Assembly: GCF_053078305.1 (NCBI RefSeq)
Contig: NZ_CP166879.1
Strand: one strand, 5' to 3'
Length of the DNA: 64,000 bases
A model generated the notes under the pieces. The model had not been told where the DNA came from and did no database searches. It worked only from the letters and a program-made list of their open reading frames with translations. Both the position numbers and the translations under genes were made by a program. Below are positions 596 to 53,705 of the stretch, piece by piece. Position 1 is the first letter of the stretch. The number at the start of each line of letters is the position of its first letter.

Positions 596-1669
596 ATGAT
601 GAAGCGCAATATTCTGGCAGTGATCGTCCCTGCTCTGTTAGTAGCAGGTACTGCAAACGCTGCAGAAATCTATAACAAAGATGGCAACAAAGTAGATCTG
701 TACGGTAAAGCTGTCGGTCTGCATTATTTTTCTAAAGACAATGGTGTAAACAGTTACGGCGGAAACGGCGACAAAACTTATGCCCGTCTTGGTTTTAAAG
801 GGGAAACACAAATCAATTCCGATCTGACCGGTTATGGTCAGTGGGAATATAACTTCCAGGGTAACAACTCTGAAGGCGCTGATGCCCAGAAAGGTAACAA
901 AACTCGTTTGGCATTCGCAGGTCTGAAATTCGCTGATGCGGGTTCTATCGACTACGGTCGTAACTACGGTGTGGTTTACGACGCACTGGGTTACACCGAT
1001 ATGCTGCCTGAGTTTGGCGGTGACACGGCATACAGCGATGACTTCTTCGTTGGTCGTGTAGGCGGCGTTGCTACCTATCGTAACTCCAACTTCTTCGGTC
1101 TGGTTGACGGCCTGAACTTTGCCGTTCAGTACCTGGGCAAAAACGAACGTGCTGGTATTCCTGAGCGTTCCAACGGCGACGGCGTCGGTGGCTCTATCAG
1201 CTACGAATTCGAAGGCTTTGGTATCGTAGGTGCTTACGGTGCAGCAGACCGTACCGACGCCCAGGAAGCCGAATTCCGCGGTCAGGGTAAAAAAGCTGAA
1301 CAGTGGGCAACTGGTCTGAAGTATGACGCGAACAACATCTACCTGGCAGCGAACTACGGTGAAACCCGTAACGCTACGCCAATTGAAGGCGGCTTCGCCA
1401 ACAAAACGCAAGACGTTCTGTTAGTTGCGCAATACCAGTTCGATTTCGGTCTGCGTCCGTCCATCGCTTACACCAAATCTAAAGCGAAAGACGTAGAAGG
1501 TATCGGTGATGTTGATCTGGTGAACTACTTTGAAGTGGGCGCAACCTACTACTTCAACAAAAACATGTCCACCTATGTTGACTACATCATCAACCAGATC
1601 GATTCTGACAACAAACTGGGCGTAGGTTCAGACGACACCGTTGCTGTGGGCATCGTTTACCAGTTCTAA
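596..1669 (+). CDS. ompF: Outer membrane porin OmpF (loop-variant allele)
   Basis: 357-aa ORF; signal peptide [22 protein letters not shown] and beta-barrel core match remembered E. coli OmpF; divergence is confined to loop segments. Confidence 0.95.
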
Positions 1670-30759: not shown

Positions 30760-32520
30760 ATGACGCAAACATTTATCCCCGGCAAAGATGCCGCACTGGA
30801 AGATTCCATCGCTCGCTTCCAGCAAAAACTTTCAGACCTCGGCTTTCAGATTGAAGAGGCCTCCTGGCTGAATCCCGTGCCTAACGTCTGGTCTGTACAT
30901 ATTCGCGACAAAGAGTGCGCACTGTGTTTTACCAACGGTAAAGGCGCAACCAAGAAAGCGGCGCTGGCTTCTGCACTCGGTGAATATTTCGAGCGTCTCT
31001 CAACCAACTACTTTTTTGCTGATTTCTGGCTGGGCGAAACCATCGCCAACGGTCCATTTGTGCATTATCCCAACGAAAAATGGTTCCCACTGACCGAAAA
31101 TGACGATGTGCCAGAAGGGCTGCTCGATGACCGTCTGCGCGCATTTTACGATCCGGAGAATGAATTGACCGGCAGTATGCTGATTGACCTACAATCCGGT
31201 AACGAAGATCGTGGTATTTGCGGTCTGCCGTTTACGCGCCAGTCCGACAATCAGACCGTTTATATTCCGATGAATATCATTGGTAACCTGTACGTTTCTA
31301 ACGGTATGTCTGCTGGCAATACCCGTAACGAAGCACGCGTTCAGGGGTTGTCCGAAGTTTTCGAACGCTACGTGAAAAACCGCATTATTGCTGAAAGCAT
31401 CAGCTTGCCGGAAATCCCGGCAGACGTGCTGGCGCGTTACCCAGCGGTGGTTGAAGCGATCGAAACACTGGAAGCAGAAGGTTTCCCGATCTTCGCATAT
31501 GATGGTTCCCTTGGCGGCCAGTATCCGGTGATTTGCGTGGTACTGTTTAATCCTGCTAACGGCACCTGCTTTGCCTCTTTCGGTGCGCATCCTGATTTTG
31601 GCGTAGCACTGGAACGTACAGTGACCGAGCTGCTGCAAGGTCGTGGCCTGAAAGATTTGGATGTGTTTACTCCGCCAACCTTCGATGATGAAGAAGTCGC
31701 TGAACATACCAACCTCGAAACGCACTTTATCGATTCCAGCGGTTTAATCTCCTGGGACCTGTTCAAGCAGGATGCCGATTATCCGTTTGTGGACTGGAAT
31801 TTCTCCGGCACCACGGAAGAAGAGTTTGCTACGCTGATGGCTATCTTCAACAAAGAAGATAAAGAAGTTTATATTGCCGATTACGAGCATCTGGGCGTTT
31901 ATGCTTGCCGTATTATCGTGCCTGGCATGTCCGATATTTATCCGGCTGAAGATCTGTGGCTCGCGAATAACAGTATGGGCAGCCATTTACGTGAAACGAT
32001 TCTTTCGCTACCAGGCAGCGAGTGGGAAAAAGAAGATTACCTGAACCTCATCGAGCAACTGGATGAAGAAGGTTTTGATGACTTTACCCGCGTGCGTGAG
32101 CTGTTGGGTCTGGCGACCGGGTCGGATAACGGTTGGTACACCCTGCGTATCGGTGAATTAAAAGCCATGCTGGCGCTGGCTGGTGGCGATCTGGAACAGG
32201 CTCTGGTCTGGACCGAATGGACGATGGAGTTTAACTCATCGGTATTCAGCCCGGAACGCGCCAACTATTATCGCTGCCTGCAAACGTTGTTATTACTGGC
32301 ACAGGAAGAAGATCGCCAGCCGCTGCAATATCTGAATGCGTTTGTTCGCATGTACGGCGCAGATGCCGTGGAAGCCGCCAGTGCGGCAATGAGCGGCGAA
32401 GCGGCGTTTTATGGCTTGCAACCAGTAGATAGCGATCTGCACGCGTTTGCTGCACATCAGTCGCTGTTGAAGGCCTACGAAAAGCTGCAGCGCGCCAAAG
32501 CAGCATTCTGGGCAAAATAA
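30760..32520 (+). CDS. ycaO: YcaO-domain protein (ribosomal protein S12 methylthiotransferase accessory factor)
   Basis: 586 aa from MTQTFIPGK; the ORF-track start 11 codons upstream is rejected. Confidence 0.9.
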   Translation: MTQTFIPGKDAALEDSIARFQQKLSDLGFQIEEASWLNPVPNVWSVHIRDKECALCFTNGKGATKKAALASALGEYFERLSTNYFFADFWLGETIANGPFVHYPNEKWFPLTENDDVPEGLLDDRLRAFYDPENELTGSMLIDLQSGNEDRGICGLPFTRQSDNQTVYIPMNIIGNLYVSNGMSAGNTRNEARVQGLSEVFERYVKNRIIAESISLPEIPADVLARYPAVVEAIETLEAEGFPIFAYDGSLGGQYPVICVVLFNPANGTCFASFGAHPDFGVALERTVTELLQGRGLKDLDVFTPPTFDDEEVAEHTNLETHFIDSSGLISWDLFKQDADYPFVDWNFSGTTEEEFATLMAIFNKEDKEVYIADYEHLGVYACRIIVPGMSDIYPAEDLWLANNSMGSHLRETILSLPGSEWEKEDYLNLIEQLDEEGFDDFTRVRELLGLATGSDNGWYTLRIGELKAMLALAGGDLEQALVWTEWTMEFNSSVFSPERANYYRCLQTLLLLAQEEDRQPLQYLNAFVRMYGADAVEAASAAMSGEAAFYGLQPVDSDLHAFAAHQSLLKAYEKLQRAKAAFWAK

Positions 32521-32851
32521 AATCAAATAGCCTACGCAATGTAGGCTTAATGATTCGTCTGAGTTATATTACGGGGCGTTTTTTTAATGCCCCGCTTTAC
32601 ATATATTTGCATTAATAAAATAATTGTAATTATAAGGTTAAATATCGGTAATTTGTATTTAATAAATACGATCGATATTGTTACTTTATTCGCCTGGTGC
32701 TCCCTTTTAATTAACTGTTTTAGCGGAGGATGCGGAAAAAATTCAACTCATTTGTTAATTTTTAAAATTTATTTTTATTTGGATAATCAAATATTTACTC
32801 CGTATTTGCATAAAAACCATGCGAGTTACGGGCCTATAAGCCAGGCGAGAT

Positions 32852-32880
32852 ATGATCTATATCAATTTCTCATCTATAAT
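32852..32880 (+). promoter_or_regulatory. focA-pflB promoter: FNR site (aTGAT-ctat-ATCAA) with downstream TATAAT -10
   Basis: Near-consensus FNR dyad at 32852-32865 and TATAAT at 32875-32880 in the AT-rich focA upstream region. Confidence 0.6.
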
Positions 32881-32925
32881 GCTTTGTTAGTATCTCGTCG
32901 CCGACTTAATAAAGAGAGAGTTAGT

Positions 32926-33783
32926 GTGAAAGCTGACAACCCTTTTGATCTTTTACTTCCTGCTGCAATGGCCAAAGTGGCCGAAGAGGCGGGTGTCTAT
33001 AAAGCAACGAAACATCCGCTTAAGACTTTCTATCTGGCGATTACCGCCGGTGTTTTCATCTCAATCGCATTCGTCTTCTATATCACAGCAACCACTGGCA
33101 CAGGCACAATGCCCTTCGGCATGGCAAAACTGGTTGGCGGCATTTGCTTCTCTCTGGGGCTGATTCTTTGTGTTGTCTGCGGAGCCGATCTCTTTACTTC
33201 CACAGTGTTGATTGTTGTTGCTAAGGCGAGTGGGCGCATCACCTGGGGTCAGTTGGCTAAAAACTGGCTAAATGTCTATTTTGGCAACCTGGTCGGCGCA
33301 CTGCTGTTTGTACTTTTAATGTGGCTTTCCGGCGAGTATATGACCGCAAATGGTCAATGGGGACTAAACGTCCTACAAACCGCCGACCACAAAGTGCACC
33401 ATACTTTTATTGAGGCCGTCTGCCTTGGTATCCTGGCAAACCTGATGGTATGTCTGGCAGTATGGATGAGTTATTCTGGCCGCAGCCTGATGGACAAAGC
33501 GTTTATCATGGTGCTGCCGGTCGCGATGTTTGTTGCCAGCGGTTTTGAGCACAGTATCGCAAACATGTTTATGATCCCGATGGGTATTGTAATCCGCGAC
33601 TTCGCATCTCCGGAATTCTGGACCGCTGTCGGTTCTGCACCGGAAAATTTTTCTCACCTGACCGTGATGAACTTCATCACTGATAACCTGATTCCGGTTA
33701 CGATCGGTAATATTATCGGCGGTGGTTTGTTGGTTGGGTTGACATACTGGGTCATTTACCTGCGTGAAAACGATCACCATTAA
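32926..33783 (+). CDS. focA: Formate channel FocA (GTG start)
   Basis: 285 aa from V/MKADNPFDLLLPAAMAK, GTG at 32926 in frame; the 398-aa ORF-track version runs through the AT-rich promoter region. Confidence 0.9.
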   Translation: MKADNPFDLLLPAAMAKVAEEAGVYKATKHPLKTFYLAITAGVFISIAFVFYITATTGTGTMPFGMAKLVGGICFSLGLILCVVCGADLFTSTVLIVVAKASGRITWGQLAKNWLNVYFGNLVGALLFVLLMWLSGEYMTANGQWGLNVLQTADHKVHHTFIEAVCLGILANLMVCLAVWMSYSGRSLMDKAFIMVLPVAMFVASGFEHSIANMFMIPMGIVIRDFASPEFWTAVGSAPENFSHLTVMNFITDNLIPVTIGNIIGGGLLVGLTYWVIYLRENDHH

Positions 33784-44964: not shown

Positions 44965-45134
44965 AATGGCTCACTCAAGCTTGCTCACGATTGATTCCAG
45001 TAACAAACCGTATTGTGTAATTATTTCTATAGCAGATCGCTATATAGGCTTGTATACATCGAATAATTTGAAAATCAAAGAGATAGGTAGATTTTCACTC
45101 GAAAGTAGTATTACGTGTAAGTGAGGAGTAATTA

Positions 45135-45148
45135 TTGTTCGGTATCAA
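45135..45148 (-). promoter_or_regulatory. FNR binding site of the dmsA promoter (TTGAT-accg-AACAA on the dmsA strand)
   Basis: Consensus FNR dyad ~175 bp upstream of the dmsA start codon; dmsABC is a classic FNR-activated operon. Confidence 0.7.
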
Positions 45149-45191
45149 AGGGAGACAAAAAAAGCGCCCGCAGGAGGTTTAACGCTACTTA

Positions 45192-45263: not shown

Positions 45264-46256
45264 CTAATCGATGGACAGTTTATGGACACTTTCAGCCAGC
45301 GGATTAAAGCTGATTGCATCCTGTAAAAAGTCCGGCGAAAAATGCGCATACGTCATCGTTTGTTGAATCGTGGCATGGCCCAGGATTCGTTGTAGCGTAA
45401 CGATATTTCCGCCATTCATCATGAAATGTGTAGCGAATGTATGACGCATGACATGGGTGGCCTGCCCTTTCGGTAAGTCCGGCTTCACCTCCTGAAGGAT
45501 CTCCCGAAATCTGAGGTAATCAGCCTGGTACAACAATCCGGTTCTGCGGGTTTTAATTAACGCAAGTACCGCATCAGAAACGGGAACGGCGCGAGATTTT
45601 CCGTTCTTGGTGTTAAAGAACATCACGCGGTTACCTACAATATGTTCCCCACGTAAACCAGCTGCTTCACCCCACCTTGCCCCCGTGGAAAGACACAGAA
45701 TGGCAACACGCCGCGCATCTCCATCGAGTCGTTCAAGCAGTCGTTCAATCTCCTCATCTGAAAGAAAGGCCATCTCTGTGTTCCTGACTTTCAGCTTACG
45801 TATTCCCCGAACCGGGTTTTCGTTATGGAACACCTCACCCTCAATCAGCGAGCTGAACATTGCAGACAAGGCACACAAATCGCGGTTAATGCTGGAAGGC
45901 ATTAACCCGGCCTGTAATTTGTCGGACCGGTACCCGAGCATAAATTTTCGCGTCATCTGACTGGCACGAGGATCACCCATCTCACGGTTTATCTTTTCCA
46001 GTCTGACCCTGTAGGTATCCCCGTAATCCTGGTTACGACCATCAAGCAACCACCAGGCCTCTATCAGTTCGGATAACCGACGCTGATCTGCTGGCTTAGC
46101 CTGCCATGGCTTATCATGAAAATTCTGCAAAACATACCTTTCAAACTCCTGCGCCTTTGACTTCAGGGTAAAAATCTTACGAATCCGCTTTCCTTCCGTC
46201 CCTTGTGGCCTTACATCAACCTTATAACGTCCGTCTTTGAGTTGCTTAATCGACAT
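45264..46256 (-). CDS. int: P2-type tyrosine integrase
   Basis: 330 aa from MSIKQLKDGRYKVDVRP; strong similarity to remembered P2 Int (LSTGARWGEAA, HxxRHTFATHF, ILGHATIQQTMTYAHF); ATG with GGAGGGG Shine-Dalgarno. Confidence 0.9.
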   Translation of the reverse strand: MSIKQLKDGRYKVDVRPQGTEGKRIRKIFTLKSKAQEFERYVLQNFHDKPWQAKPADQRRLSELIEAWWLLDGRNQDYGDTYRVRLEKINREMGDPRASQMTRKFMLGYRSDKLQAGLMPSSINRDLCALSAMFSSLIEGEVFHNENPVRGIRKLKVRNTEMAFLSDEEIERLLERLDGDARRVAILCLSTGARWGEAAGLRGEHIVGNRVMFFNTKNGKSRAVPVSDAVLALIKTRRTGLLYQADYLRFREILQEVKPDLPKGQATHVMRHTFATHFMMNGGNIVTLQRILGHATIQQTMTYAHFSPDFLQDAISFNPLAESVHKLSID

Positions 46257-46325
46257 GATTAGCCCCTCCAACGGATAAATTAACCAAACACTCCCTGCGG
46301 GATGAAACCCGCTCGATGTGTAACG

Positions 46326-46673
46326 TCAGCCAGCATTGCGGCCTGATCGGGATGATTTTTGGGTAACGTCGATTGAAGCCAGATCGCCCTCCGACTGAGA
46401 AGATCCATCAAGAGAGAGAGCCGGGGCAATTTGACCCCCAGCTTCAAACGTTTCATCAGTTGTTAACCAAAGTGCATATTTTTTAAAACGTAAATTTTTT
46501 GTGATCTTTAATAAGATCTCACTTCCGATTCCATCTTGCCTTCCCGTTTCGTAATACCTCTGCGTATTAACAGGAATCCCTGTAAGCTCAAAGAATTGCT
46601 TCCTTGTAAGCCTCTCACTTTTCCGGATCATCAAGATTTTTTCACCGATACTTATTGACAGTGTCGAATTCAT
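46326..46673 (-). CDS. P2 C-type immunity repressor (HTH)
   Basis: 115 aa from MNSTLSISIGEKILMIRKSERLTRKQ; resembles remembered P2 C (EKIVLMRKSEYLSRQQLADLTG, GQIAPAL); upstream of int on the same strand. Confidence 0.8.
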   Translation of the reverse strand: MNSTLSISIGEKILMIRKSERLTRKQFFELTGIPVNTQRYYETGRQDGIGSEILLKITKNLRFKKYALWLTTDETFEAGGQIAPALSLDGSSQSEGDLASIDVTQKSSRSGRNAG

Positions 46674-46774
46674 ACCACTAAAATCCTCGCAAAAGTGTCG
46701 TAATTTCGACATTAAACAAACCAAAACAAACCTTCATAAGGTGCAATAGGCGCACCTGTGCGAGAGGATAACAA

Positions 46775-47305: not shown

Positions 47306-47701
47306 ATGAGCGGCAAAAATAAGTCAGAAAAAAACACAACCGTCCTTAAGCAGTTAAGCCTCCTGAAAGAGGAACACAAGGACGCCACGATACTGATGCA
47401 TCTGGAAGGCTCACCGAAAATAACAATCACAACAACCTATAGCGAGTTACACAAAGAGCTTGAAGGATTAATTAACTTTTGTTCAAAGCTAAAAGCGAAT
47501 GAAAACATTGATGACCTGATACTTAAACCAGAAGCAGAGTTCGGGCACTTTTGCGAAAGTAGAGAAAATGGATGCATCGGAATAATGCTATACGCAACCC
47601 GCGGAATAATGATTAATCTGCCCGTTGAGCAGGCTGTGGATATATTCGGAGAAATGGCACTTAATAAAACCACTATTTACAAAAGAAAAATGCCGGAGTA
47701 A
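47306..47701 (+). CDS. Hypothetical phage early protein (lower-GC moron candidate)
   Basis: 131-aa ORF starting 7 nt after the cox-like stop; GC ~40% by hand count against ~55-60% in the rest of the prophage. Confidence 0.5.
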   Translation: MSGKNKSEKNTTVLKQLSLLKEEHKDATILMHLEGSPKITITTTYSELHKELEGLINFCSKLKANENIDDLILKPEAEFGHFCESRENGCIGIMLYATRGIMINLPVEQAVDIFGEMALNKTTIYKRKMPE

Positions 47702-47714
47702 CCCGGCATGGTTA

Positions 47715-47909
47715 TTAGTATGTTGGTCCCTTAGAAAAGTTCCAGGAACTCTTGCGAGGGTATTTATGAAGTACTTTTTCGCGGACATCGTTAGCCAGAT
47801 CTCTGATTTGATCGTGCTTATCATCAGAAGACGGAGGAACTTCGGGGATTTTATCCACGATTTCAATTACTGATTTAAGCATTTTTATTAATTCATCGTC
47901 GTAAGACAT
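47715..47909 (-). CDS. Hypothetical small protein, reverse-oriented inside the early operon
   Basis: 64 aa from MSYDDELIKMLKS with a perfect AGGAG Shine-Dalgarno 6 nt upstream; convergent with the 47306 gene; lower GC. Confidence 0.5.
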   Translation of the reverse strand: MSYDDELIKMLKSVIEIVDKIPEVPPSSDDKHDQIRDLANDVREKVLHKYPRKSSWNFSKGPTY

Positions 47910-48016
47910 TGTTATCTCCTTTTTCTGGTTGTGTGGAAACACCAGAATACCACGCGCCGGGCGTGGTTAAACATCCCGGCACTGATTTTCATTTAACTTA
48001 AACGGGGTTTTCCGAT

Positions 48017-48355
48017 ATGACACAGCGACGCAGCTTCCGCACTGGCGCAGAACGCCACGCAGCCCGTTTCTCAACCAGCGCATCACGCAGCAACTCGCAC
48101 TACAGCCTGCAGGAAACGCACGCCACACCTGACGGGCATCCGGTTAAACAAACCGGTAAACACACCTGGCTGATTAATGATGCCGGAATTGTCATTCACC
48201 GGGGCGCACGCAACCCGATTACCGGAAATACCTGTTACTCCCTGACTCGCGGAGATGAGCAGTTCGGGCAGGATTTCACCCTGCACGAAGCATTAAGAAC
48301 GGCAGACCGGTTAATCAGCGGTCGCAGTTTTCAGCACCCGGAACATCGCCGCTGA
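48017..48355 (+). CDS. Hypothetical phage early protein
   Basis: 112-aa ORF in the early operon; no recognisable motif. Confidence 0.45.
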   Translation: MTQRRSFRTGAERHAARFSTSASRSNSHYSLQETHATPDGHPVKQTGKHTWLINDAGIVIHRGARNPITGNTCYSLTRGDEQFGQDFTLHEALRTADRLISGRSFQHPEHRR

Positions 48356-48374: not shown

Positions 48375-48617
48375 ATGATCGAAGCCTACAAAATACTTAT
48401 TAATAATGCGTTGCAGCGTTATCACTTCGAACTCGCAAACCGGGGGGTAACCCGGGACGAAGGACTTCGTAACTCACTGCGGGGCGCAATTATGGGACTG
48501 TATAACTGCGCACTGGGCAGCGATGACCGCGAAGCACTGGAAGAATTAAAAGTTATTGTGGCCGAACTGTTTGAAGGTGAAATCGTTGAGCCTTATTTCA
48601 CAGAGGTGGCAGCATGA
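48375..48617 (+). CDS. Hypothetical phage early protein
   Basis: 80-aa ORF with AAGGAT Shine-Dalgarno; stop overlaps the next start (ATGA). Confidence 0.5.
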   Translation: MIEAYKILINNALQRYHFELANRGVTRDEGLRNSLRGAIMGLYNCALGSDDREALEELKVIVAELFEGEIVEPYFTEVAA

Positions 48618-50150: not shown

Positions 50151-50269
50151 GTGATCATCATGCACACACAAAAAAACCGCTTGCCATGCCGCAATCAGTC
50201 AGGTTACATTCCCACTGCACCTCATAAAACGGGTGCCGGGATTACCACCCCGCCGACTACACAAGCGCA

Positions 50270-50291
50270 CAACCGCGCCAGCGGTTTTTTT
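50270..50291 (+). terminator. Intrinsic terminator inside the prophage early region
   Basis: AACCGC-gcca-GCGGTT hairpin followed by TTTTTTT. Confidence 0.5.
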
Positions 50292-50470
50292 GTGCGTACT
50301 GTATCGCCACGTCTTTTTCGCGTCAGAATTATGGCGGGGCGTACGGGGCCGACTTCGGTCGGGCCGGGGTCTTGTGTAGCCGGTTGTGGTAACCCTGTAC
50401 GTCTCGCCACCCTGAGATTACCGCCTCGGGTTGGTGAGTTTTCACAACTTACTACACAAGGGGCCACACC

Positions 50471-50766: not shown

Positions 50767-51189
50767 ATGAAGAACGTTAAGGGACTTTCAGATATTCAGG
50801 ATTTTTTTAACTGGATGTGGGCAGTGGATCCCCGGCTGGCTTCCCGCCTGAACGACTGGCACGACTATTACCGCCGCGCCTGTAAACAGGCCGCCAGACG
50901 CGTCACCACATACGGGGATTTCTCCTTCACCGTTGACGGCAGTTACCGCGTGGACGTGAAAGGCGATGGTGATGGTTTTGGTTTTGGTTTATTTCACATC
51001 AACGGAACCGACAGCACCGCCATCAGCTGGTCGTCGTCAGAGATGACGCTTGTTCTGGAAATGACAAACCACAGCGTGGCCGTGAAAGGTATATACACCG
51101 CAGAAGACTTTATCGGTGAATACCAGCGCCTTCTCGTGCTGTACCGGGCAGCGTTTCAGGCGGCAACTGCCGGGGAGTGCGACGCATGA
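50767..51189 (+). CDS. Hypothetical phage protein
   Basis: 140-aa ORF with GGAGG Shine-Dalgarno; stop overlaps the gpA start (ATGA). Confidence 0.5.
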   Translation: MKNVKGLSDIQDFFNWMWAVDPRLASRLNDWHDYYRRACKQAARRVTTYGDFSFTVDGSYRVDVKGDGDGFGFGLFHINGTDSTAISWSSSEMTLVLEMTNHSVAVKGIYTAEDFIGEYQRLLVLYRAAFQAATAGECDA

Positions 51190-53705
51190 GCGACCATAAC
51201 GCACAACTGGCGTACCCGTGGAACGCCCCGCTGCCGGTTATCGATCCTGAAACGTTCGGCAGAGCGCAACCAACCGCATTACGCCAGGCCATTCAGAGCT
51301 ACATCAACGAAGACATTCGCACTGACGCCAGACTGGATGAAGAAACCGTCGCCTTCCTGACAACCACAGACGAAGGGAAGCGAATTAATTCGCATCTTCA
51401 CCACGACGAAGAGCGTCGGATCAGACTGGAAAAACTGACGCGACACAAACGCGAAAATCCACCCACGCTGGTATCTGAAGCCATGGCAGAGCTGCGCGCC
51501 CTGCCGCCGTTTCTTGCCGGTCCGCTCATCCGTGACCTGGCCCGCCTGAGCCGCAAACAGGAGAGCGCACGCCGGGAAGGGCTTAAGAATAACAGCGCAT
51601 ATGCGGCGGATAACTTCGTTCGTCACGGCCTGCGTGCCCGCCTGAAACGTATCGCCCGTGTGAATGAACGCTTTGCCACCCCGGCCTTTAAGGCCACCGC
51701 CGCCCGCGAACGGCTGGATGAACTGCTTATGCTGCCGCAGCTGAGCCGTGACGAAATCCAGCGCCTTGCCACCCTGACCGCCACCGCGTTTTCCGCCGCA
51801 CTGGAGCGCGCATGTGATGAGGTCATCGAAAAGACCGGCAGGGGTGACGATGACCTGTTCACCTGGTTACTGACCTACCAGCCACTGGCACGCATGGCGT
51901 TAAAACTGGGTATCACACCACCCTGCTGGCCGTCGCTGGAAATCAGACCCGACCGCCGCACCGCCCCCGACCCGGAACAGGTGCCGGGTGCGGTCATGCG
52001 CCTTTCCTGTGCGACATGGTGGAACAGTCAGTTAAGACACCTCCGGGACATCTGGCGTGAAGAGCTGTTACGCGCCGCAGGTCTGGTGTCACGTAAGACA
52101 TCGGTATATATCAGCCATGAAGCGTTACTGGACTGGCGCGAAAAACGCCAGCGCACCCGCGATTTTCTGAAGGCCTGGGACATCGAGAACGAAGAGGGAG
52201 AACGGTTCAGCCTTGAGGATATCTACTGGGCAGGTCTCTCTAATCCGCGTAACCGCCGTAACGAGATGATGGCCTGCGTCCGGGGAATGGAGCAGGTCGC
52301 CGAAGCACGCGGCGACCTGGCGTTTTTCGTCACCGTCACAGCCCCTTCCCGTTTTCACAGCGTGAACGATGACGGCAGCCTGAACCCGAAATACTGCGGA
52401 GCAACGGTACGTGATGCCAGTGATTATCTGGTTTACCGCTTTTTCGCCGCCGTCCGCAGGGCCATCAACAAGGCCGGGCTGGGCTGGTACGGCGTGCGCA
52501 CAGTGGAGCCCCACCACGACGGTACACCGCACTGGCACATGCTGGTATTCACCAGCCCGGAAAACGAAGCCCGTATCACTGAAATCATGCGCAACGCCGC
52601 CATCAGGGAGGACCGCGCAGAGCTGGGTGATGATATCTCCCCGCGTTTTAAATGCGAAAAAATCGACCCGGCAAAAGGCACACCGGCGAGCTATATCGCG
52701 ACCTATATCGGTAAGAACCTGGACGCCAGCGCCTTCATGGGGAATGACCCGAAAACCGGCAAACCTTACGTCGATAAGGAATCAGGCAAAACCATGGCCG
52801 AAACCGTGGAGAACGCCATCGGCTGGGCGGCCCTTCACCGCATCCGCCAGTTCCAGTTCTTCGGTATCCCTCCCCGCCAGGTATGGCGCGAACTCCGCCG
52901 CCTTGCCGGGCAGATGGCCCGTAACCCGGCTGCCCCGCAGCGTCTGGACCATGACGACATTGACGCCATACTGGCCGCCGCCGACGTGGGATGTTTTGCC
53001 ACCTATATCACCCGCCAGGGTGGTGTGCTCATTCCCCGCAACACGTACCTGGTCCGCACCGCATACGAAACTGCCGAAGAGGCCAACGACTACGGCGAAT
53101 TCCCGCAACGCATTTACGGCGTCCGCGCCCCGTCACTCGGGGAGCGCTACACCATATGCACCCACCCGGACACCTGGAAACTGGTCAGACGTAAGCCGGA
53201 AAACGAAGACCGCACGGACGAGGGTTTTGACGTTGAGTGCGGCTTTGCCGCACCTTGGACTCGTGGCAATAACTGTCCCCCTGACCAGAATCTGACCATA
53301 AACGACCCGCCAGAAAGGCAGCCGGACGGACGCAGGGAGCAGCGACTTACCCTGCCGGAAGGTGATTTGGGTGAATGGTTAAGGTCACTGACCCCCACAG
53401 AGCGAAAACAACTCACCAGGCAGCTGAAAAACCCGCCACCTGACACGGAAACCGTGAAAAACGGCGGCATCAGTGCGCCCGCTGGCGGCGTTCGCGTGAG
53501 TGTCGCACTGACCGCTGAGCCACACATCACCGCACAAATCACCCGTGAGCTTGATGCGCTGGGCGTGCAGCTGCATGAAAGCGCCGTCGTTTCCGTCCGG
53601 CACGGTGCCCGCGTGCGCCTGGCTGACGGGCGCACCGCGTACTGGAATGACAGCACCCGCCGCATTGATATCACCCCCGCACCGAATACGGAGGCGCCAC
53701 AATGA
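51186..53705 (+). CDS. Rolling-circle replication initiator endonuclease (P2 gpA-like)
   Basis: 839 aa from MSDHNAQLAYPW (ATG with GGGGAG Shine-Dalgarno; the ORF track uses a GTG 9 nt upstream); HUH motif GTPHWHMLVF; size and position as in P2/186. Confidence 0.85.
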   Translation: MSDHNAQLAYPWNAPLPVIDPETFGRAQPTALRQAIQSYINEDIRTDARLDEETVAFLTTTDEGKRINSHLHHDEERRIRLEKLTRHKRENPPTLVSEAMAELRALPPFLAGPLIRDLARLSRKQESARREGLKNNSAYAADNFVRHGLRARLKRIARVNERFATPAFKATAARERLDELLMLPQLSRDEIQRLATLTATAFSAALERACDEVIEKTGRGDDDLFTWLLTYQPLARMALKLGITPPCWPSLEIRPDRRTAPDPEQVPGAVMRLSCATWWNSQLRHLRDIWREELLRAAGLVSRKTSVYISHEALLDWREKRQRTRDFLKAWDIENEEGERFSLEDIYWAGLSNPRNRRNEMMACVRGMEQVAEARGDLAFFVTVTAPSRFHSVNDDGSLNPKYCGATVRDASDYLVYRFFAAVRRAINKAGLGWYGVRTVEPHHDGTPHWHMLVFTSPENEARITEIMRNAAIREDRAELGDDISPRFKCEKIDPAKGTPASYIATYIGKNLDASAFMGNDPKTGKPYVDKESGKTMAETVENAIGWAALHRIRQFQFFGIPPRQVWRELRRLAGQMARNPAAPQRLDHDDIDAILAAADVGCFATYITRQGGVLIPRNTYLVRTAYETAEEANDYGEFPQRIYGVRAPSLGERYTICTHPDTWKLVRRKPENEDRTDEGFDVECGFAAPWTRGNNCPPDQNLTINDPPERQPDGRREQRLTLPEGDLGEWLRSLTPTERKQLTRQLKNPPPDTETVKNGGISAPAGGVRVSVALTAEPHITAQITRELDALGVQLHESAVVSVRHGARVRLADGRTAYWNDSTRRIDITPAPNTEAPQ

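Follow-up and report, generated by a model that had tools for sequence, protein, structure and literature searches.

Convergent genes of matched allelic types in a variable slot after cox of P88-type prophages

The window analysed here, a stretch of 64,000 nucleotides of E. coli, is occupied from about 45.2 kb by a P88-type prophage (Xuanwuvirus) of the P2 family, which is integrated beside dmsA. The integrase and the C-type repressor are encoded leftward, and the early operon is read rightward from cox, continuing beyond the DUF4754 gene to gpA (51177-53705). A strong promoter, Pe, was found upstream of cox by a promoter scan, which gave no second consensus promoter between Pe and the DUF4761 gene. 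By eye, no rightward promoter was evident for DUF4761. The best reading is that Pe drives cox, ORF131 and the downstream early genes. The cox gene on the left and the DUF4761 gene on the right are the conserved flanks of a variable slot that lies upstream of gpA and not at the gpA-portal or Z/fun hotspot. In the window, the slot holds two genes, ORF131 ('large') and ORF64 ('small'), whose coordinates are given together with the neighbouring features in Table 1.

Table 1. Genes and signals around the slot after cox, in positions of the window
Feature	Position	Strand	Remark
Integrase	45264-46271	-	
C-type repressor	46326-46724	-	
Early promoter Pe	46655-46684	+	TTGACA-18-TAAAAT, 11/12 (promoter scan)
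Cox-family regulator/excisionase, 174 aa	46775-47299	+	phrog_23196 3e-95; annotated Cox family
ORF131 ('large')	47306-47701	+	alpha/beta, early-operon gene
Terminator-type hairpin	47680-47709	-	ATGCCGG-GTTACT-CCGGCAT, then TTTTCTTTTG
ORF64 ('small')	47715-47909	-	64 aa from ATG
Shine-Dalgarno AGGAG	47920-47916	-	6 nt ahead of ORF64 ATG
Conserved upstream block	47941-47984	-	candidate leftward promoter/regulatory element
DUF4761 early gene	48017-48355	+	
DUF4754 gene	48375-48617	+	

ORF131 starts 6 nt after the stop codon of cox. It is convergent with ORF64, tail to tail, and the two stop codons are 13 nt apart. A preliminary description of this DNA had reported a 131-aa ORF after the cox-like gene and a reverse 64-aa ORF with an AGGAG Shine-Dalgarno sequence, and these were all present at the expected places. 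Its end of the reverse ORF at 47942, however, corresponds to an upstream GTG in the same frame, from which 75 residues would be made. The ATG start of ORF64 is supported by its homologues, since they all begin at the equivalent residues MS(Y/E/H)D or MN(S/E) and have a Shine-Dalgarno sequence.

The segment 47306-47942 had a GC content of 0.400 and belongs to the lowest 1.1% among all 637-nt segments of the window. Gene by gene, the values were 0.402 for ORF131, 0.385 for ORF64, 0.503 for cox and 0.572 for DUF4761. At third codon positions, ORF131 reached 0.447 and ORF64 0.369, compared to 0.526 and 0.593 in the flanking genes. The earlier hand count of about 40% against 55-60% stands for the pair (40.0%) and for the late region (50-64 kb, 0.55-0.61 in 2-kb bins), but not for cox with its 50% or for other early segments. 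The repressor gene (0.416) and the stretch from 48.5 to 49.0 kb (0.40-0.44) are also AT-rich, so that low GC marks several early segments and not the pair alone. Still, the composition of the pair is unlike that of the rest of the phage, as is described for morons (PMC3594210). The sole other stretches of the window that are equally AT-rich, with at most about 40% GC in 637-nt segments, are 1-937 and 32301-33237.

The content of the slot was studied in loci that were retrieved via the neighbouring Cox protein and compared from cox to DUF4761. In phage P88, DUF4761 follows directly after cox and the slot is empty. In the relatives, 104 to 1354 nt separated the matches to cox and to DUF4761, and at least nine kinds of content were distinguished; additional DNA between neighbouring genes of related phages is another feature of morons (PMC3594210). 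Other contents of the slot, besides the pair, were the gene of a 68-aa membrane protein, a forward gene of 64-69 aa, or a reverse gene of 151 aa together with a forward gene of 87 aa. The IMG/VR loci found via Cox carried the pair in 17 of 35 cases and the large gene only in 2 of 35. A query with the region from cox to DUF4761 matched 326 E. coli genomes. The allele of the window is rare: among 5426 complete E. coli genomes, 7 had the full pair and 3 more the large gene alone. The preliminary description had asked for the presence or absence of the pair in syntenic relatives and had named two observations that would speak against it, a pair that is universal at this position and a reverse ORF that is not conserved. 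Neither was found, since the slot differs among P88-like prophages, with P88 having no insert at all, and the reverse ORF is conserved. As a side observation, the 68-aa protein (phrog_14475), which is apparently hydrophobic and possibly spans the membrane twice, is encoded directly after cox in many relatives, alone or with other cargo (L018-L021, L019, L035-L037, L039, L040, L043).

When the slots were compared, both proteins proved to have diverged homologues that are encoded in the same convergent arrangement. Direct searches found near-identical E. coli proteins only. A profile of the small protein recovered members in E. coli, E. albertii and Yersinia enterocolitica, and scanning genome contigs with a profile of a sub-alignment gave one locus, in E. 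albertii. In the recovered contexts, the order was always cox, sometimes the 68-aa gene, the large gene, the reversed small gene and DUF4761. The pair-bearing prophages are P88-like and have unrelated Cox and repressor types, with Cox proteins of 95, 153, 161 or 174 aa, and they occupy three attachment sites besides the dmsA-side site of the window. The large proteins have 131-146 residues and are 15-33% identical to ORF131. The small proteins have 59-64 residues, are 25-40% identical to ORF64 and share their length, their start and an invariant K-Y-P near the C-terminus. After Nei and Gojobori, the large gene had a dN/dS of 0.13-0.23 and the small gene one of 0.13-0.63 that fell to 0.13-0.14 at higher divergence, which indicates that both genes are under purifying selection. 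What had been described as an insert is not an isolated one and is better described as two co-diverging families that form five matched allelic pairs in three species.

ORF64 is short, and some of its relatives are irregular. In NZ_CP148318.1 (L001), a 1-base deletion in the GGGG run that corresponds to 47844-47847 of the window frameshifts the gene, which has no RefSeq annotation there, and database variants of the small protein continue for 55, 74 or 106 aa beyond the KYP. A chance ORF in a region of low GC that arose by local drift could show such a length, such a frameshift and such tails. This explanation is contradicted by the conservation, namely by a family in three species at 25-40% identity with dN/dS down to 0.13 and with conserved Shine-Dalgarno sequence and hairpin, and its probability is practically negligible. 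Judged from the sequence comparisons, ORF131 and ORF64 are real genes and make up a conserved two-gene accessory cassette.

The association of the two genes was then followed in 71 sequences, i.e. 70 fetched loci and the window, many of which are near-identical and some of which are the same place fetched twice. Matched pairs were found in 23 loci of the L006 type, 12 of the L016 type, 7 of the window type and 4 of the L017 type, and a fifth type was found in L041. Mixed types of large and small gene did not occur in any of the 47 pair-bearing loci, and a small gene without the large gene was not observed. Across the types, the two stop codons range from 13 nt apart to an overlap of 4 nt. The small gene was swapped for unrelated reverse genes three independent times with the large gene retained. 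In L003, 172 aa forward and 107 aa reverse are encoded instead, with breakpoints at 47708 and 47920 of the window; the replacement in L034 and L038 has 78 aa and that in L052 about 156 aa. The 78-aa and 107-aa proteins were considered as relatives of the small family and rejected as unrelated. Between the window and L050, the large genes differed with a dS of 0.38 and the small genes with a dS of 0.03, which indicates recombination inside the module. In L041, cox and the large gene are separated by an extra 131-aa gene (975-1370, plus strand), which encodes a protein whose residues 5-65 matched the N-terminus of head scaffolding/maturation-protease PHROGs (phrog_73, 1.9e-5), which is odd for an early-region gene.

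The co-divergence, the matched types, the interlocked 3' ends and the survival of the large gene only make a cognate pair the most likely relationship of the two proteins. The alternative is that they are independent neighbours, with ORF131 as an accessory early gene for host takeover or counter-defence and ORF64 as the commonest cargo of a leftward 'moron socket', whose matching of types reflects nothing but physical linkage. The exchange of the small gene while the large gene stays would also fit two independent genes. In the three replacements, the new reverse genes stand behind the upstream block of the old one, and recombination did occur inside the module. The strict matching could likewise come from tight linkage, and many of the loci are near-identical and not independent. 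Against independence speaks that the five pairs have diverged in proportion, with 15-33% identity for the large and 25-40% for the small proteins, and that no mixed pair arose although recombination is frequent on either side of the pair and where the large gene meets the small one. We regard independent neighbours as unlikely, but as an explanation to be taken seriously.

Searches for function returned nothing for either protein. Neither the single proteins nor the family profiles had a match in Pfam, PHROGs, PADLOC, NCBIfam or the PDB sequences, which bears out the earlier statement that no recognisable motif is present; the other alleles tested and the alternative cargo showed no resemblance in the same searches either. 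With tblastn, the window-type and L016-type proteins had no match in 50,697 phage records. An exhaustive phmmer search of ORF131 against 1.84 billion representatives found the protein itself and one family member (P0020, 2.6e-12), and two long proteins matched in multiple stretches were discounted. No defence family was assigned by PADLOC-DB 2.0 to the pair, to the other types tested or to the alternative cargo, and the sole hits were a Cas7f-like match for the L052 cargo (E 0.008) and mad1 for Cox (E 0.024). ORF131 and ORF64 showed no homology to the toxin and antitoxin families of PADLOC, NCBIfam and Pfam.

The AlphaFold model of ORF131, computed with an 11-sequence alignment, was of moderate quality (pLDDT 70.9, pTM 0.68). 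It predicts the order helix, two strands, helix, three strands, helix and strand, with no helix-turn-helix. A Foldseek search with this model found only its own uncharacterised family in AFDB50 and nothing in BFVD; a Knr4/Smi1-like match with an E value of 0.75 was treated as noise, so that ORF131 was given no fold assignment. A C-terminal excisionase-like helix-turn-helix ending in TTIYKRK was also considered for ORF131 and rejected, since the family does not conserve this motif and the region is modelled as strand-helix-strand. For ORF64, a two-helix hairpin is predicted with low confidence, and a relation to the lambda CIII protein was dismissed at an hhalign probability of 1.2%. When the large and the small protein were modelled as a fusion with a linker, the result was of such low quality (pLDDT 54, small part 49-59) that binding could not be judged from it; it showed no confident complex, which would be in line with two independent neighbours.

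The signals on the leftward strand suggest that ORF64 is a unit of its own. The hairpin behind the gene (47709-47690, then TTTTCTTTTG) had -11.9 kcal/mol with a z of -4.3; it begins 5 nt past the ORF64 stop and lies within the last codons of ORF131. A GC hairpin directly 3' of the small gene and within the last codons of the large gene was present in 4 of the 4 allelic types examined, with a weak T-tract in some types. With this hairpin, ORF64 has a terminator of its own, as do morons (PMC3594210). The second signal is the upstream block, which reads GTGCCGGG...CCAYGC-CCGGC-GCRTGG-T(T/A)TT(G/C)TGGTA on the minus strand. It holds an inverted repeat CCACGC-N5-GCGTGG (47950-47966) with the alternative arms GCCGGG/CCCGGC and, by eye, an extended -10-like TGgTATTCT (47952-47944) about 35 nt ahead of the ATG, which appears as TGgTAT(T/C)T across different cargo. 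The block is common to 4 of the 5 allelic types, is kept in loci with unrelated reverse cargo (L003, L034, L004) and is missing from loci without a reverse gene. In the window type, the 6-bp inverted repeat carries a compensatory change from T-A to C-G. The motif CCAYGC-N5-GCRTGG did not occur elsewhere in the window, where the block is unique, so that there is no sign of a regulon. In L004 (2892-3043), the block persists although the adjacent gene is forward, and it is followed by a Shine-Dalgarno sequence and a 13-codon remnant ORF that resembles the remains of a former reverse gene.

No consensus leftward promoter of at least 9/12 was called by the promoter scan, and none farther upstream of the block was convincing by eye. 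As the scanner called nothing at the block itself, the leftward promoter is a candidate only. The preliminary description had ascribed an upstream region of its own to the reverse gene; the gene has its Shine-Dalgarno sequence, its terminator-type hairpin and, in 4 of 5 types, the conserved block upstream.

With the block conserved rather than the cargo, and with an early transcript that has to cross the reverse unit, the leftward transcription could itself be the function, either as an antisense or interference brake or as an establishment transcript like pE of phage 186, with ORF64 being secondary. For this related phage, both interference between convergent promoters and a leftward promoter activated by CII have been described (PMC6593788, PMC7708051). 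A leftward unit is indeed present, but the hairpin and T-tract after ORF64 precede the repressor and int genes, and because a hairpin follows the small-gene stop in the four types examined, read-through to cox, C and int is not favoured. In addition, purifying selection acts on the small ORF, whose start, Shine-Dalgarno sequence and KYP are conserved, and ORF131 has no predicted helix-turn-helix and no similar phage protein in the 50,697 records. We consider a function of the transcription alone very improbable.

How a cognate pair might be expressed can be read from the layout. ORF131 would be read together with cox from Pe and hence be made on infection or derepression. ORF64 would be a separate leftward, moron-like unit with its own Shine-Dalgarno sequence, upstream block and terminator hairpin. 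Since there is no evident rightward promoter before DUF4761, the Pe transcript must cross ORF64 in antisense to reach the replication genes, and therefore ORF64 would most likely be made when Pe is repressed, i.e. in the lysogen. Firing of Pe would shut ORF64 down by convergent-transcription interference and antisense pairing. From the behaviour of the convergent promoters of phage 186 (PMC6593788), mutually exclusive expression of ORF131 and ORF64 is predicted. We infer the leftward promoter, that the two genes alternate in time, that their products bind each other, and any role in exclusion or self-immunity. In the favoured assignment, the small protein would act as an inhibitor in the lysogen and would be neutralised, in an allele-specific manner, by the early protein. 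For the whole cassette, a reciprocal early and lysogenic expression of a cognate binding pair is our tentative reading, somewhat short of an even chance.

The reverse assignment is that ORF131 has a host-toxic early function and that ORF64 neutralises leaky ORF131 in the lysogen, as in a toxin-antitoxin-like safety catch. The predicted reciprocal expression and the matched pairs would fit this, and a small protein predicted to be helical would be typical of stoichiometric inhibitors. Yet ORF131 persists without ORF64 in three lineages, which would require that the replacements are analogous antidotes, the arrangement is convergent and not an operon, and no similarity to a toxin-antitoxin family was detected. 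This makes the safety catch improbable. More generally, a toxin, exclusion or host-fitness function had been suggested for the pair at the outset; no result of the analysis shows one, and no PADLOC, toxin-antitoxin family or structural match was obtained.

The favoured assignment could be extended to a new allele-specific exclusion or self-immunity system, in which the roughly 60-aa protein of the lysogen blocks the lytic development of incoming P88-like phages and the 131-146-aa protein of the matching allele neutralises it. If this were true, only the resident phage or a phage with the same allele could grow, and selection to escape and to discriminate would explain why the five alleles are diverged and always matched, as in colicin-immunity or heteroimmunity groups. 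We give this extension little probability.

Morons are separately transcribed units that have been added to phages between conserved genes (PMC3594210). ORF64 resembles them in its place between genes that are adjacent in P88, its deviating GC content, its Shine-Dalgarno sequence, hairpin and upstream block and its presence or absence among relatives. It differs from the classical single-gene morons by being interlocked and co-diverging with an early-operon neighbour and by having a leftward promoter that is only a candidate. The first view of a moron-like insert holds in that the pair is accessory, of distinct composition and with ORF64 reversed, but ORF131 is an ordinary member of the early operon of Pe. 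As a kind, such moron or accessory cargo of a variable slot is known from P2-family prophages (PMC3594210, PMC9122126, bioRxiv 10.64898/2026.02.27.708500).

P2-like phages have hotspots with old/tin, Z/fun and many defence systems (PMC9122126; bioRxiv 10.64898/2026.02.27.708500; bioRxiv 10.1101/2024.10.15.618418). Like these, the slot is bounded by conserved core genes and its cargo is rapidly swapped. Unlike them, it is an early-operon site immediately behind cox and not one at gpA-portal, in the tail genes or at tail-CI, and its cargo matches no known defence family. One preprint lists only a broad 'integrase to primase' interval with 8% of the P2 defence systems (bioRxiv 10.64898/2026.02.27.708500), and the slot falls within this minor interval.

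The logic of the favoured pair would be analogous to the prophage defence BstA with its cognate self-immunity element aba (PMC8585504), where a factor active in the lysogen is combined with a cognate element that spares the phage's own lytic cycle. There is no sequence relationship to BstA, however, and its self-immunity element is DNA and not a protein. The CII/pE arrangement of phage 186 is similar in that a gene follows an excisionase-like gene and a leftward promoter, here a candidate, faces the early operon. Unlike CII, ORF131 has no CII similarity and no predicted helix-turn-helix (PMC7708051), and unlike pE, the ORF64 unit has a coding sequence of its own and a hairpin at its end. The pair shares with type II toxin-antitoxin systems that two small, co-inherited and allele-matched proteins are encoded on a mobile element, but it is convergent and not co-transcribed, has no homology to a known family, and its larger partner survives the loss of the smaller one.

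No description of the two protein families or of the slot directly after cox was found in the searchable literature. Two 'hypothetical proteins' have thereby become two defined families with five allelic pairs and a conserved candidate element for leftward control. If the proposed action is true, a layer of allele-specific phage-phage competition by protein-protein contacts would exist beside the classical C/Cox immunity switch, and the slot directly after cox would be a further P2-family cargo site in which to look for conflict genes. As to annotation, the small gene of 59-64 aa is a real gene that is not always called, for example not in NZ_CP148318, where it has a frameshift.

RNA families were searched with Rfam, and none was found within the interval of ORF131 and ORF64. 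Farther into the early region of the prophage, the Hfq-binding RNA isrK (50217-50291, plus strand, 63.6 bits) lies beside a C4 antisense RNA (50327-50414, plus strand, 79.6 bits). C4 is the RNA that controls the antirepressor in P1/P7-type phages. On the dmsA side, just outside the prophage at its integrase end and near the attachment site, a full-length match to the sRNA STnc130 was found at 45055-45189 on the plus strand (122 bits, E 1.6e-20).
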